Shown here: in pieces, positions 15,292-20,602 of the stretch
Position numbering within the stretch: the stretch's first letter is position 1
Layout: each line of letters begins with the position of its first letter
Made by a program: the position numbers and the translations under genes
Virus record (IMG/VR): IMGVR_UViG_3300035698_016988
Span: 10,622 to 74,621 of that record
DNA from: a virus
Direction: 5' to 3' (one strand)
Length of the DNA stretch: 64,000 nucleotides
The notes under the pieces: generated by a model
The model's input: only the letters and a program-made list of their open reading frames with translations
Database searches by the model: none
Told to the model about the DNA's origin: nothing

Positions 15292-17118
15292 ATGATTCAA
15301 TTTGAAAAAATTATTCTAAAGAACTTTATGAGTTTCGGTAACGTACCGGAATCTATTCCGCTTGATCGTGATCCGTTGACGTTGATCTTAGGAAGAAACC
15401 AAGACAAAGGTGAAGACTCAGGTGAAAGAAACGGTGTCGGTAAATCCAGTATCGTTATGGCGCTGCACTTTGCTTTGTTCGGTATTTCGGTTGGTAACAA
15501 AATTAAGAAGCCGAGGCTAATCAATAACATCAACCAAAAGAATCTTGAAGTAACTCTGAAGTTTACAATCGGAACGAACTCTTACACGATTAAAAGATTC
15601 CGTAAACCAGAGAAGCTAGAGTTTTACGTCGACGATCACTTGGTAAATGACCAGGGCGGTGACGAAGGCCAAGGCGAGATGGGAAAGACCCAAGAAGAAA
15701 TCAATCGTGTAGTCGGCATCACTCCTGATATGTTTAACCAATCAATTTTCTTGTCAGTCATTACTGAGCCGTTCTTGCTATTAGGATCCGGCAAGCAACG
15801 TGAATTGATCGAAGAACTTCTAGGAATTACTCAATTATCTGAGAAATCAACTACTCTCAAAGAAATGCTAAGAGAAACAAAGACTCAACTTGATAAAGAA
15901 ACGTTCAAAATCAAAACAGTCGAAGAGACTAACGCCAGGGTTAGAACCAATCATGAAAAGTCAATTCAAAACTTGATGTCCAGAGAGACACGTTGGGAGA
16001 ATGAGCATAGGTTCGAACTCGACGGGATTGAAAAAGAAATCGCTGAATACAGTGAGATCAGTATCAACCAAGAAATTAAAAATCACGAACTCCTAGCTGA
16101 ATGGCTAGAAAAGAAAGTGGCACAAGATCAATTATTGTCTGAACTCGAAAGAACTAATATCGAAAAGGGTCGTCATGATCGAGCAAAGCAACAAGCTTTC
16201 AAGCGTTTAGAAGATTTGGCAATTGATTTAGAATCAGCTGAAGAACAAAAATGCCCTACTTGTGGTCAGGACGTGCATGACGATAAACACGATTCTGTCC
16301 TTGGCGGCATCGTTGAAAAAGTTGAGTTTTACGAAAAGCAACTCAGAGAAGAAGACGATAACCTGGCACAAATTGAGGAACGCTTACAAGAACTAAGCGA
16401 ACTAGAATTTGACCTAGGTAAAAAACCTGAGGTATTCTATACCGAAGTTAAGGATGCATACAAACACAAAAGTACGCTGAAATCTTTAAAAGATGGATTG
16501 AAATCTGAGAAATCAAAAACCAATCCTTACTCTGAGCAAATTGCTTCCCAACCAGATGCACCGTTGCAGGATATCAATTATGAATTAAAGGATGATCTCA
16601 TTCAACTTAGAGACCACCAAGAATTCCTTTACAAACTCTTAACCAGCAAAGACTCATCAGTTCGAAAACATATTATTAACCAGAACATCAGTTACTTGAA
16701 TGCTCGCTTAGGTATGTATCTCGAGAAACTAGGGTTGCCACATGAGGTTGAATTCTTGAATGACCTCAGCACTGAAATCACAATGCTCGGTAATCAATAT
16801 GACTTCTTGAGTCTATCTGCGGGTGAGCGGGCACGCTTGACTTTGGGACTTATTTTTGCTTTCCGTGATGTTTGGGAATCACTAAATCAAACAATGAACA
16901 TCTTCTTTGTTGACGAATTTCTCGACACGGGGTTAGATACAGCGGGTGTAGAATCCGCGCTTAAGACCTTGAAACAATTGGGTCGAGAACGCGCAAAGAA
17001 CATTTTTATCATATCACACCGTGAAGAGTTAATTTCAAGATGTTCAAATGTATTAACGATTGTAAAAGAAGGCGGCTTCAGTCAACTCGAATGGCAAAGA
17101 GACGAGGAAGAAGTATGA
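15292..17118 (+). CDS. gp46: Recombination ATPase subunit (Rad50/SbcC-like)
   Basis: NGVGKS Walker A, CPTCGQ zinc hook, LSAGE signature, FFVDE Walker B, ISH. Confidence 0.93.
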   Translation: MIQFEKIILKNFMSFGNVPESIPLDRDPLTLILGRNQDKGEDSGERNGVGKSSIVMALHFALFGISVGNKIKKPRLINNINQKNLEVTLKFTIGTNSYTIKRFRKPEKLEFYVDDHLVNDQGGDEGQGEMGKTQEEINRVVGITPDMFNQSIFLSVITEPFLLLGSGKQRELIEELLGITQLSEKSTTLKEMLRETKTQLDKETFKIKTVEETNARVRTNHEKSIQNLMSRETRWENEHRFELDGIEKEIAEYSEISINQEIKNHELLAEWLEKKVAQDQLLSELERTNIEKGRHDRAKQQAFKRLEDLAIDLESAEEQKCPTCGQDVHDDKHDSVLGGIVEKVEFYEKQLREEDDNLAQIEERLQELSELEFDLGKKPEVFYTEVKDAYKHKSTLKSLKDGLKSEKSKTNPYSEQIASQPDAPLQDINYELKDDLIQLRDHQEFLYKLLTSKDSSVRKHIINQNISYLNARLGMYLEKLGLPHEVEFLNDLSTEITMLGNQYDFLSLSAGERARLTLGLIFAFRDVWESLNQTMNIFFVDEFLDTGLDTAGVESALKTLKQLGRERAKNIFIISHREELISRCSNVLTIVKEGGFSQLEWQRDEEEV

Positions 17119-17126
17119 CAGAAAAA

Positions 17127-17342
17127 TCAGTCTTCCTGATACCACTTGATCAATTCCGAAACTGCCATTCCGGCAGCAACTTCTGTACCTAAACGCATGG
17201 CGGCCTTCTCTCGAAGTTCACCTTCTGTGAGCCCATCCACCAGATCGAGTCCGTCTCTGACTGGTTGGGTTACGACGTCGATCGCCGAGCTTAAAAATTT
17301 ATCAAACATATCTTTATTTAACACCTTGTCAAACTTTGTCAA
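17127..17342 (-). CDS. Hypothetical protein (probably starts at the internal MFDKF)
   Basis: ORF track; protein-like composition. Confidence 0.5.
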   Translation of the reverse strand: MTKFDKVLNKDMFDKFLSSAIDVVTQPVRDGLDLVDGLTEGELREKAAMRLGTEVAAGMAVSELIKWYQED

Positions 17343-17414
17343 GAATATTATTGATCAGATGAATGTACGGTGTTAGGATTATAATAAGAAAAACACAAAA
17401 CTAAAGGAGTTTAA

Positions 17415-17522
17415 ATGATTTTATTCGACGAAGAAGTTAGAGCAGAACTTATTGAATGCGGTTACAATCCCGATGATGATGAAGATGTATTGGCCTGGGC
17501 GGAAGATTTACTAGAAGGTTAA
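17415..17522 (+). CDS. Small acidic hypothetical protein (35 aa)
   Basis: AAGGAG RBS, then MILFDEEVRAELIECGYNPDDDEDVLAWAEDLLEG*; TATAAT upstream. Confidence 0.55.
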   Translation: MILFDEEVRAELIECGYNPDDDEDVLAWAEDLLEG

Positions 17523-17525
17523 TGC

Positions 17526-17554
17526 TTGACTCCTGTTCAACTCGGTGTTACTTT
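17526..17554 (+). promoter_or_regulatory. Sigma70-type early promoter
   Basis: TTGACT-N17-TACTTT with extended TG; embedded in a long palindrome. Confidence 0.6.
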
Positions 17555-17582
17555 AAGTGACACTGAGGAACAGGAGTTTTCA

Positions 17583-17944
17583 ATGCAAACATATTCCCAA
17601 GATCAAATCAACAATTTTCGTGCTTACCTGTCTTATAAGTAAACAGTCCGCACTTCCCTCATCATGTTTTTGCTAAAATCAAAATCCCAACCTGCCCGAC
17701 CATTAAAACTGCAAGTGATGCTATTGCGCTACTTTCCCAAAATGCAGTAGTCGATGCTTTTAATTCTTATCTAACGTATATGAACTTCGGTTCAAAAATT
17801 CAAGATCAACTCTTAAATCTGACCGTTAATCAGTTACAAGCAAAACGCTTAATCGCAAAACGGGACGTCGAGCCGATCACAATCGAGCAGTTCTTAATTG
17901 AACGAGCAAAGCCTTCACCACAAAGCCTTCGCCACAAAGCCTAA
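17583..17944 (+). pseudogene. Frameshifted small early gene
   Basis: RBS plus MQTYSQDQINNFRAYLSYK*, then ~100 open codons in the -1 frame (NSPHFPHHVF...LRHKA*). Confidence 0.5.
17907..17942. repeat. 14-bp tandem repeat, ~2.5 copies
   Basis: CAAAGCCTTCACCA CAAAGCCTTCGCCA CAAAGCCT. Confidence 0.8.
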
Positions 17945-17947
17945 AAC

Positions 17948-17983
17948 AAAAAGCGCGGAATGTTAATTCGTTACGCGCTTTTT
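17948..17983. terminator. Bidirectional intrinsic terminator
   Basis: AAAAAGCGCG...CGCGCTTTTT between convergent genes. Confidence 0.75.
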
Positions 17984-18000
17984 CCTTGTCTAAAAATGGA

Positions 18001-18510
18001 TTAAATCTTTTTCTTGTAAAGTTTGACCAATTCTTTTTTGGTCTCTTTTCCAGAAAGTTCTATATTATTATGTTCAAGGAGGATCGTTATTTGGTCCTCC
18101 TTTTTCATATTCTTAAATTTGGTAACTTTTTTATTCTTATGTGCTGGATGTTCGTAATCAGTTTGATTAGATTTGAGATAAGATAAATGATCTTCCAGCC
18201 ATCCAATATAATCAGTTTCTAGGCTCACGTGCCCAGATCGTCTAAAACGATAAAATAAAATTCCTTCCAATAAATTGCATCTTCTGCACAAAACCCCACG
18301 GACTAAACCCGAATCGTGATTGTGGTCAACGTGGCGGTTCGTATTATCTTCAGTCAATAAATCTTCAGAGCAAATGCCGCATTTATAATCTTGTGCGACG
18401 AGCAACTCATCACGAATTCTTGCGATATCTTTTGATTTAAGAATTGTAACCAAGGGATCTCCATTTGAATTAATGTCAGGTAATGCCACAAGTGACCCAT
18501 CTCCCAGCAA
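18001..18510 (-). CDS. gp49: Endonuclease VII-like resolvase (probable true start is TTG at 18453 after GGAGA)
   Basis: QDYKCGIC...HVDHNHDSGLVRGVLCRRCNLLEG Endo VII motif. Confidence 0.85.
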   Translation of the reverse strand: MLGDGSLVALPDINSNGDPLVTILKSKDIARIRDELLVAQDYKCGICSEDLLTEDNTNRHVDHNHDSGLVRGVLCRRCNLLEGILFYRFRRSGHVSLETDYIGWLEDHLSYLKSNQTDYEHPAHKNKKVTKFKNMKKEDQITILLEHNNIELSGKETKKELVKLYKKKI

Positions 18511-18582: not shown

Positions 18583-19461
18583 ATGAGCGAGATCAGGCTA
18601 AAGAATGCCCTTTCACAAATGAAAAACGAAGCTGTTTCGGAACGTAAAAATCATATCCGAAAGCATCGAAATCAACAAGGTGAGGCATGGTCAGTTGAAT
18701 GCCAACTGGCTGACCCGCAAGACGCCAGACGAATGAACGGATTCATGCAACATGAATTGGATCTATATAATCAAATCCTAGAATATTTCAACCCAACTGC
18801 AAGAACTGCTCCAGAGATCTTCTCGGCTTTTACCGAAGAGCATATCAATTTGTTTGCATTCTTAGCACAGCACGGTATCGATATTCGAAGAATACGAAAA
18901 AGCAATCTACCAGATGTTATGAAAGAATTCGAAACGATTCTATTCGACGGTTCTATTAGTGAAAGAATGAAAATCCTAATGGAATCAGTAGGCGGATCTT
19001 ATTCGATGCTTGAATCAACCAAGAAAGCAATGGCTCGTGAGCTAATGAAATTCTATGCTGAGGACGCAAGAGTACGTCAGCAAAGAATGCCAAAAGGCGG
19101 TGACCAAGAATTTAAAACCCCACCTAAGTCTTTGGCACAGCAAACCCCAATCAGCAAGCGTCACTTGCAGATGAAAAGAGACCAAGTCAAAATCAAATTC
19201 AACGAAAAAGAAGACCGTTCGGAAATTTCGATCCCTTATTGTTCTTCACCGATTTACGTGAAAGAAGTTGATCTATCAGATCGTAATTCTTGGAATATTA
19301 TGATCGTTCACCAAACACCAAATGTAATGGTCCTACCAGGATCACCTTGGGTTTTAGACTTCAGGGGCATCAAGAACGATTACTTGGTTGATTATTTAGA
19401 CAACCGTAACGATAAGTCAGGAGTATTCTGGCATGCCAAATCAAACAGGAGTGGAAGATAA
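18583..19461 (+). CDS. Hypothetical protein; possible TnpB/Cas12f-like WED-REC module lacking RuvC
   Basis: The CDS is clear (AGGAG RBS, late promoter). The fold is inferred from the motif order SVECQL, helix with LYNQILE, then RHLQ, ISIPY..PIYVK, IMIVHQ, WVLDF. Confidence 0.5.
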   Translation: MSEIRLKNALSQMKNEAVSERKNHIRKHRNQQGEAWSVECQLADPQDARRMNGFMQHELDLYNQILEYFNPTARTAPEIFSAFTEEHINLFAFLAQHGIDIRRIRKSNLPDVMKEFETILFDGSISERMKILMESVGGSYSMLESTKKAMARELMKFYAEDARVRQQRMPKGGDQEFKTPPKSLAQQTPISKRHLQMKRDQVKIKFNEKEDRSEISIPYCSSPIYVKEVDLSDRNSWNIMIVHQTPNVMVLPGSPWVLDFRGIKNDYLVDYLDNRNDKSGVFWHAKSNRSGR

Positions 19462-19587
19462 TGTCACAACTTTTAGAAACTTGCTTTTGCTTAGTGCAGG
19501 CCTAGTAATGAATCCAAATAACGGAAATATGGTTATTATTTTCTTAACTCGATATTCGGAAGAGCCAACGGACGCCGAATAATCTTA

Positions 19588-19616
19588 TTGACGCTCGCAG
19601 TTTAGATATATAGTAT
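19588..19616 (+). promoter_or_regulatory. Sigma70-type promoter facing the non-coding region
   Basis: TTGACG-N17-TAGTAT; no RBS-led ORF downstream. Confidence 0.6.
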
Positions 19617-19622
19617 CAGATA

Positions 19623-20260
19623 GTTAGAACATAGTGACTCAGATATGGTGGTATACCACCGACGGAAGGGATGCCTAGGTATCAGGAACGTCGTAAAACC
19701 CGCGTCACACGGGACCGCAATGAAAACTTCCAGGAAGAGGCACCATCCGAACTGGGACAGACGGCGGAATATTTACATGCACTCAATGAATCGGCGAGGT
19801 ATGTGATAAGGATTAAGATTTTAATCTGAAATAGGTCGCGGATGCTGATGGCATCTTTGAAAATGAAGAACCATATCCAAAAATTAGAAGGCACAAATTA
19901 GGCACAACACTACCATAGGCAAAAAAATCAGGTGAAATGAATACCGCAAGGCACAAATCAGGGCGACGACCCGTAGGCACAAGGATTTGGATCATGCTCT
20001 GTCTCGAGACACTGACAACATGAACTCCGTTAGAAACTTTGAAGGTATGAAGTAATAACGGACGCCGGTTTTGGCTTAGCCACAAAACCTAGAGCGATAG
20101 GCGGGATTCGGAAACCCCTCGTTTGTATAAACTCTACATACCCTGACCATACGATGTACCATACGGAAATCGTCCTTTTGCCCTATTTCCAGTTACTTGG
20201 AGGCGGGGGCAAAAGGACTGGACTCACCCAACGGAATGTGTCTTGTTCAAGCCTCATCCA
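19623..20260 (+). ncRNA. Putative large structured non-coding RNA (ends approximate)
   Basis: ~930-nt gene-free gap in a dense genome with many stems: 19647-19660, 19660-19693, 19699-19713, 19727-19737, 19810-19827, 19841-19855, 20067-20089, and a 12-bp stem 20172-20183/20207-20218. Confidence 0.65.
19889..19984 (+). repeat. AGGCA(C/A)AA repeat cluster within the ncRNA
   Basis: Copies at 19889, 19900, 19917, 19949 and 19975. Confidence 0.8.
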
Positions 20261-20392
20261 ATAGACTAATATGACTTGAAATGGTTTTAATGATGTTTCT
20301 AGAAAAAGTTACCAATGAAAACTGTTAGGTTTTCATTAGATCTTTAGATCTTAGATAATTGTTATATTGTTTCACACTTGGAATCTTTGCGA

Positions 20393-20602
20393 CTATCGTG
20401 AGGCTTTCTTCATTGCTCTATGATATTCTTCGTAGGCATCAACCATTGATTGTCTATCTTCTCTGGTAGAGAGCCACAATTCTGTCCAACCAATTCGGCC
20501 TTCCATATACATCATTATCTGGCTAATCTCTGACCGGATAGCTTTTGCCTCATCTTCGATTTCAGTGAGGAAACCGGAAATTCCCTCATCGTCTAGGAGC
20601 AA
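20393..20602 (-). CDS. gp51-like/T-type chaperone extension, probably reached by -1 frameshift
   Basis: No ATG or RBS; lies in the -1 frame of the upstream gene after T-TTT-TTC. Confidence 0.6.
   Translation of the reverse strand: MLLDDEGISGFLTEIEDEAKAIRSEISQIMMYMEGRIGWTELWLSTREDRQSMVDAYEEYHRAMKKASR

Follow-up and report, generated by a model that had tools for sequence, protein, structure and literature searches.

In TnpB, the WED and REC domains grip the DNA duplex that contains the TAM and also touch part of the guide-RNA scaffold and of the guide–target duplex. Among large RNAs that are frequently borne by phages or prophages, ROOL and GOLLD have no known partner. Much of the surface of TnpB that binds the scaffold and the heteroduplex is supplied by its RuvC domain (PMC10097598), and TldR proteins, TnpB homologues with a dead nuclease and in some cases a truncated C terminus, have their guide RNAs encoded 3′ of their genes and include phage-borne examples (PMC10705468). 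Here we describe a locus at which a predicted RNA of about 615 nt lies directly 3′ of a gene for a 292-aa protein modelled with the TnpB WED–REC fold, on the same strand, as do TnpB ωRNAs and TldR guide RNAs. As in both of those systems, conservation of the scaffold ends sharply and variable sequence follows; as in TldR, the nuclease appears to have been lost from the protein; and short members of the RNA family in other phages (~130–150 nt) are of ωRNA size. Unlike TldR, the 292-aa protein is without the whole RuvC/ZnF half, not the active site alone, and has no Pfam match. An ωRNA comprises a 116-nt scaffold and a 16-nt guide, whereas the RNA is about 615 nt long here and about 790 nt in a sister clade (clade B); it also differs from the RNAs of TnpB and TldR in having its own promoter, in being separated from the gene by another ORF, and in that no guide–target pair, TAM or conserved pseudoknot was found. 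TnpB and TldR, the latter nuclease-dead TnpB-like repressors that are in part encoded by prophages, are IS200/IS605-derived, but the carrier here is a huge T4-like phage of lytic type and neither a transposon nor a prophage.

Other described systems share single features with the locus. Its likeness to the IscB/HEARO ωRNA and to the second Cas12f protomer would consist in a small protein with an enlarged RNA replacing missing domains, which is inference only here; unlike IscB/HEARO and the Cas12f dimers, it has no HEARO match and no nuclease partner has been identified. An earlier reading of this DNA, made from the sequence alone (hereafter the sequence-only reading), had placed the RNA in the size class of ROOL and GOLLD. 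The size is indeed shared (about 0.6–0.8 kb), as are the many helices, the phage location, the lack of a known function and a transcription unit of its own, but the RNA belongs to neither family: there is no covariance-model similarity even at E ≤ 10, hosts and context differ, and the RNA is modular, with a small conserved core and a lineage-specific extension. With ColE1 RNA II and T4 oriF/oriG it shares a promoter-driven structured RNA of about 0.55 kb, and an RNase H gene adjoins its clade-B counterpart, but no AT-rich origin features and no antisense regulator were seen and it is conserved in the manner of a folded RNA that acts in trans. Unlike in the CsrB/RsmZ sponges, the repeat occurs mainly in single-stranded spacers instead of hairpin loops, and its unit reads AGGCA(C)AA or AGG(U/G) in place of A(N)GGA.

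Few new large structured RNAs come with solid covariation, and this one was validated from sequence alone. It defines a family of at least 12 distinct cores, together with a second RNA of ~790 nt at the same position in the sister clade. Should a complex with the protein prove true, it would bring huge lytic phages into the range of RNA-guided, TnpB-derived systems, exemplify RNA growth offsetting protein loss and supply a protein module of very small size that could be used for programmable binding; should the link fail, the RNA would still be a new, experimentally tractable phage non-coding RNA with clear boundaries, a promoter and a testable structure.

Genomic setting of the locus

The window, by which we mean the whole 64-kb stretch of DNA that was analysed, belongs to a 74.6-kb viral contig that CheckV estimates to be ~20% complete. 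The source phage is T4-like and huge: T4-type genes on the contig include a gp46/gp47-like SMC nuclease pair, endonuclease VII, a baseplate protein (PF12322) and a gp20 portal ~48% identical to the portals of ~350-kb jumbo phages such as Vibrio 2.275.O, Xanthomonas XaC1 and Serratia BF. The RNA locus sits in the gap between two convergent gene blocks. Upstream are the 292-aa ORF (18583–19461, +), which matches nothing in Pfam or PHROG, and a 49-aa ORF (19433–19582, +) between the 292-aa gene and the RNA promoter; the convergent block contains a 69-aa ORF (20602–20393, −) and the baseplate gene (21465–20608, −).

On the strength of its position and a weak alignment, the 49-aa ORF is interpreted as what is left of a truncated Tad2-like (anti-Thoeris) gene. 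The syntenic gene in a homologous IMG/VR contig (L002:7822–8175, −) encodes an intact Tad2-like protein (PF11195, E = 8.5e-27), and only pieces of the gene are present in the window and in a second homologue, L091, which retains the C-terminal part. The nuclease adjoining the TnpB-like gene is endonuclease VII in the window (18001–18510, −) and PDDEXK_15 at L055:9523–10062 and L120:3761–4330, which looks like a non-orthologous swap at one genomic position. Another stretch with short ORFs only extends from the gp46-like gene to endonuclease VII (17118–18000), and in L002 a distance of ~3.4 kb separates the RNA locus from a tRNA gene (L002:11159–11231, −; Rfam RF00005, 63.5 bits).

Comparative evidence for a structured RNA

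The sequence-only reading had interpreted this gap as a large, promoter-driven, structured phage non-coding RNA of an unrecognised class, a claim that remains open on this one sequence, where promoter and folding energy are both weak. The putative sigma70-like promoter (19588–19616, +), with a −35 element TTGACG at 19588–19593, a 17-nt spacer and a −10 element TAGTAT at 19611–19616, is present as described; its 9/12 match alone is not above chance (8 sites found versus 4.6 expected), and the −35/17/−10 layout is kept in L002 (TTGACA/TAGTAT) and L091 (TTGACT/TAATAT). From this layout we would infer a transcription start near 19622–19624, for which no measured start exists. Comparison of the minimum free energy (MFE) with that of shuffled sequences, which the sequence-only reading had named as a way to refute its claim, did not come out in favour of a structured RNA on the + strand (z = −1.13) and z = −2.88 on the − strand, and the scores of both strands are uninformative.

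Searches for a known identity were negative throughout. No ORF of note and no open frame across the RNA region was found in six frames; ARAGORN found neither a tRNA nor a tmRNA; and cmscan of the whole window against Rfam at the gathering threshold returned 0 hits. Relaxing the search of region 19400–20500 to E ≤ 10 yielded only a chance 12.6-bit SOX2OT match, with none to the models for ROOL, GOLLD, OLE, HEARO, RNase P, tmRNA, group I/II introns or 6S. The RNA region had no blastn match in GenBank phages, and an exact-hairpin pattern search found nothing.

Covariation is a stronger test than the MFE z-score, and two homologues made it possible: L002, reached via relatives of the baseplate protein, and L091, which was found by a motif scan of JGI metagenomes and extends the contig end of L001. 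The non-coding element, promoter included, recurs at the corresponding place in both, with pairwise nucleotide identities of 82.8, 74.5 and 71.7% for the element and 62–69% for three neighbouring genes. A three-sequence RNAalifold structure delimits a conserved structured scaffold at about 19623–20236 (~614 nt, +), comprising 23 helices and 137 pairs. Across the three phages 94.6% of cells were paired, compared with 41–48% when partners were slid, and compensatory changes occurred in 41 of the 137 pairs, compared with 4–11 in the slid controls; none of 500 shuffles reached any observed pairing measure. We caution that the structure was derived from the same alignment on which it was counted and that some bias is expected, although the margin is large. 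G·U cells numbered 58 and A·C cells 6, which fixes + as the RNA strand. Covariation across homologues, which the sequence-only reading had named as a test, is therefore clearly present. Since the homologues show many compensatory base changes, nucleotide conservation exceeds that of the flanking genes and Rfam holds no match, the interpretation as a structured non-coding RNA is borne out, and we regard it as confirmed by comparison that the window encodes a real, structured, conserved + strand RNA of no catalogued family.

Architecture of the predicted RNA

The comparative model supports the stems GGTGG/CCACC, GACG/CGTC, GATGC/GTATC and GATGC/GCATC of the sequence-only reading, as well as its 12-bp perfect stem (20172–20183/20207–20218, helix 23). 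The long-range pair GATATGGT/ACCATATC fared less clearly, with two compensatory changes in L002 (GAAUGGU/ACCAUUC) in its favour but a different partner picked by RNAalifold for its 3′ strand. Four further stems did not hold as written: the conserved helix at CTTCCAGGAAG is UCCAG/CUGGG, GGATTAA/TTAATCT is a window-specific insert hairpin missing from L002, and CCCG/CGGG and GGTTTTG/CAAAACC compete with covarying long-range helices.

The predicted RNA opens with a 5′ core domain ('type A'; 19634–19767, +), in which a candidate pseudoknot (GUGAC/GUCAC versus CCCG/CGGG) is sterically doubtful. A mostly single-stranded central region follows, with a run of AGGCA(C)AA or AGG-centred modules (19889–19982, +) that contains all four exact copies of AGGCACAA in the 64-kb window; L002 and L091 have 6–7 comparable AGGCA/AGG modules each, at positions that are not identical. 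Being an isolated match of 8/9, TTAGCCACA at 20074 was not retained as a DnaA box. Towards the 3′ end, a long terminal hairpin (20172–20218, +) encloses within its 12-bp perfect stem a small covarying inner hairpin, whose stem changes from CCAG/CUUGG to CUAGC/GCUAG in L002, while the outer stem is retained in L091 via U·G pairs. Behind it lies a conserved single-stranded tail, ACTCACCCAACGGAA (20222–20236, +), and a motif scan built on this tail recovered all three homologues.

Conservation begins at the promoter and ends abruptly past this tail, at 20236, giving way to a poorly conserved 3′ segment of ~75 nt (20237–20311, +) in which the alignment of the three phages is lost. Next comes a covarying hairpin (20312–20339, no strand assigned) that is maintained although its sequence differs entirely from phage to phage (window, AATGAAAAC/GTTTTCATT; L002, GGTCAC/GTGATC; L091, AAGCC/GGCTT). 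It scored as terminator-like on the − strand and is possibly bidirectional between the convergent units. Right behind it all three phages have an invariant AGATCTNTAGATCT; the AGATCTTTAGATCT motif there (20338–20351, no strand assigned), made up of two BglII-type palindromes, is kept in the three loci and is unique in the window.

A wider family of type-A RNAs

A covariance model of the 5′ domain 19634–19767 (R1) gave weak, exactly placed matches in the distant phage loci L106, L107 and L112, and direct alignment revealed the blocks AUGGUGGU..CCACC..GAARGGAU..AUCAGGAA common to these loci and the window core. A motif from core sequences recovered 18 IMG/VR loci, 14 of which match the rebuilt model (R2) at E values of 1e-5 to 1e-23. 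The score of the window itself against R2 (92.9 bits, E = 2e-21) is high by construction, the window having been a seed; nine non-seed members scored 32–87 bits (L002 87, eight motif-fetched loci 32–79). Among 12 distinct cores, 90.5% of cells were paired and 17 of 23 pairs were compensatory, compared with 3–7 when partners were slid; this alignment was fitted to the model and hence leans towards it. The motif also had 71 matches in GTDB bacterial and archaeal genomes, which were rejected as chance-level (E ≥ 0.08 with R2). By covariance modelling, then, the type-A 5′ core is a new, phage-only RNA family with at least 12 distinct members.

In other phages the type-A RNA is only about 110–145 nt long. 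That of the window's lineage has a ~470-nt 3′ extension with 6–7 AGG-centred modules and the long terminal hairpin, an extension that this lineage added to the phage-specific core. Directly upstream of the short-form RNA in other phages lies a gene for a basic protein of 88–120 aa and no known family (L106:4806–5090, L107:4880–5158, L112:4869–5165, L110:4812–5078 and L120:4320–4682, all +). Outside the window's lineage, no other neighbour accompanies the core RNA as constantly, and the protein was not found in phages with enlarged RNAs.

Predicted fold of the upstream protein

A tblastn search with the 292-aa protein and with a clade-B relative found no match in GenBank phages, and single-protein IMG/VR scans with either flanking protein found nothing. 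Its AlphaFold (AF2) model (pLDDT 71.6, pTM 0.68) had Cas12f/TnpB as the top Foldseek matches, and when the model was compared by VIA-align with 48,161 PDB representative chains, the top 30 were all TnpB, Cas12 or Fanzor. ISDra2 TnpB was the best structural match (Z 10.2–10.4 over 170 residues, rmsd 4.0 Å, TnpB residues 2–175), unrelated folds started at Z 4.5 in the same ranking, and several of the best matches were Cas12f chains with only WED–REC ordered (for example 9nzp_B and 8dzj_B). A profile of the family had Fanzor1 as its best match among PDB sequences (E = 0.0012). In ISDra2 TnpB, WED comprises residues 1–12 and 117–176, REC residues 13–116, and RuvC begins at residue 185 (PMC10097598). 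The aligned TnpB range 2–175 is thus exactly WED plus REC, and the 292-aa protein ends where RuvC starts.

Together, the structural ranking, the aligned range and the Fanzor1 profile match indicate that the 292-aa protein is, as modelled, the WED–REC module of TnpB/Cas12 without RuvC and without the zinc finger. It is the most reduced TnpB/Cas12 relative that we know of, retaining no more than the half that binds RNA and the TAM. A profile search found 192 cluster representatives of the family; among the 150 of these that were listed, all were ≤345 aa and none was a longer, RuvC-bearing relative. The TnpB-like nature of this gene, which the sequence-only reading had not linked to the RNA, changes the most likely mechanism.

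Association of protein and RNA in two clades

In the window, L002 and L091 the order is the same, from the gene for the TnpB-like protein through the Tad2-like gene to the promoter and RNA, with the protein gene and the RNA on the same strand. In the window, only the 49-aa remnant ORF lies between the end of the 292-aa gene at 19461 and the start of the RNA promoter at 19588. Clade B comprises 10 loci, including complete genomes of 436 and 465 kb, and encodes a homologue ~30% identical to the 292-aa protein; in 10 of the 10 loci this homologue is followed at once by a different non-coding element of ~790 nt, the RNA beginning right after the homologue's stop codon. The clade-B RNA (L029:7828–8616 and L055:7810–8584, both −, with equivalents in L034, L036, L047 and L097) has compensatory changes in 53 of 204 pairs, long invariant blocks and no Rfam match. 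With neither R1 nor R2 was a type-A core found in the RNAs of clade B, the only results being a weak sub-hairpin resemblance at E 0.68 and matches out of position. In the protein tree clade B and the window's clade are split with support of 1.0, and the two RNA types follow the split. As separate observations on clade B, L060, L071, L100 and L103 form a third sequence group sharing only the 5′ ~30 nt, and a gene for a 126-aa RNase HI (PF13456/PF00075) follows the clade-B RNA immediately and in the same orientation (L055:7073–7453, −; L060:7058–7441, −).

Loci fetched by the RNA motif alone provide a view of the association from the RNA side. A homologue of the 292-aa protein lies upstream on the same strand in L116, L121, L125 and L128, but three type-A variants (L115/L120/L123, L119 and L118/L127/L129) have a PDDEXK nuclease and a 118–120-aa basic protein upstream and no 292-aa homologue, and none was found in the 216-kb record of L127 (42% complete). 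Upstream proteins of 189 and 205 aa, considered as diverged copies of the 292-aa protein, were rejected because they are PDDEXK nucleases. Conversely, L108 and L110 have the TnpB-like protein without a detectable RNA. The protein–RNA link is not obligate; the two genes nonetheless travel together in two deep clades, which shared synteny within one phage lineage could explain.

Proposed mechanism and alternative interpretations

In the TnpB family the RNA is encoded just 3′ of the gene; from this rule and the parallel arrangement in two deep clades we infer that the RNA is a subunit of a nuclease-free, TnpB-derived ribonucleoprotein (RNP) with the 292-aa protein, an inference to which, without expression or binding data, we give an even chance. 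A trans-acting structured RNA (~19623–20236, +) would be made from its own early-type promoter and would pair with a WED–REC-only TnpB/Cas12 derivative of 292 aa that lost RuvC. By analogy with TnpB ωRNAs and TldR guide RNAs, the complex would bind nucleic acid without cutting it, and the enlarged RNA would take over surfaces normally provided by RuvC. We stress that the mutual binding of RNA and protein, any guide role and the target are inferred only.

A guide function in particular is speculative. The conservation boundary at 20236 resembles a scaffold–guide junction, and 20237–20311 is a possible guide-like or spacer region, again by inference only; the segment after 20236 has no second match in the 74.6-kb contig, the clade-B segments had no target in two complete clade-B genomes (BLAST and 20-mers with up to 3 mismatches), and no covarying pseudoknot partner was found for the 3′ tail. 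The lack of a target, the lack of a tail pseudoknot and the missing RuvC surface count against a guide role. A point against the RNP reading as a whole is that the RNA is 4–5 times as long as known ωRNAs and has no similarity to them. We found no literature on such a protein–RNA pair in huge phages. More tentative still, and in our view unlikely to be right in full, is the proposal that huge T4-like phages encode an undescribed class of such nuclease-free RNPs in which a WED–REC protein and a co-evolving RNA, grown from ~130 nt to 0.6–0.8 kb and replacing the RuvC lobe, direct sequence-specific binding to host or phage nucleic acid, for silencing or for a replication-start R-loop, during lytic infection.

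An alternative interpretation that remains credible, if short of probable, is that the RNA is a stand-alone structured molecule (a scaffold, sponge or ribozyme), perhaps acting with the small basic protein, and that the 292-aa gene is a mere syntenic neighbour. The type-A core does occur without a 292-aa homologue in three variants, the 88–120-aa basic protein directly precedes it outside the window's lineage and is missing where the RNA is enlarged, as if RNA expansion and protein were alternatives, and large phage-borne RNAs with an unknown partner exist in ROOL and GOLLD. The 6–7 AGG-centred modules in a single-stranded region resemble those of protein-titrating RNAs, although they are AGGCA and not the GGA of CsrB-type sponges. 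Two further observations are harder to reconcile with a solitary RNA: where a TnpB-fold protein is encoded immediately upstream and on the same strand, an RNA partner is strongly to be expected, and behind members of this one protein family two deep clades have unrelated large RNAs in matching positions.

The sequence-only reading had itself offered a second possibility, a transcription-primed (R-loop) replication origin like T4 oriF, in which a folded RNA would form a persistent hybrid with its template and a cut by RNase H would prime DNA synthesis. The RNA's own promoter, a length close to that of RNA II, iteron-like direct repeats and the RNase HI gene directly after the clade-B RNA are compatible with such an origin, and a WED–REC protein could in principle hold an RNA–DNA hybrid. 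We nevertheless consider it improbable, disfavoured but not excluded, because selection acts on RNA pairing (58 G·U versus 6 A·C cells), on some 20 RNA helices over the whole length, and because the region is GC-richer than its surroundings (0.45–0.49 versus 0.36–0.41 in the flanks), with no AT-rich unwinding element. Moreover, repeat positions are not conserved as DNA, the short relatives of ~130 nt look unlike primer transcripts, and there is no RNase H gene in the window's contig, which is only ~20% complete. It is barely tenable that the locus, lying between convergent operons, is no RNA gene but the remains of a decayed gene or a site acting as DNA, such as terminators or a region bound by protein, since its place between convergent units, a + strand z-score that falls so little below zero and the gene decay marked at this spot by the adjacent Tad2 remnant are outweighed by the compensatory pairs, the excess of G·U over A·C, conservation above that of the coding flanks, a conserved promoter and the lack of an open frame, and the covariation has already largely refuted it.

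Occurrence in salt-lake metagenomes

The same DNA is present in several salt-lake metagenomes, and no RNA dataset is listed among the sequencing runs that carry it. Four other salt-lake runs showed only the identical phage, in fragments, plus one poly-A length variant. This variant, in which the A-run in the RNA's central region (window position 19920) is longer by one A, occurs in one run and is the sole difference seen among the four.
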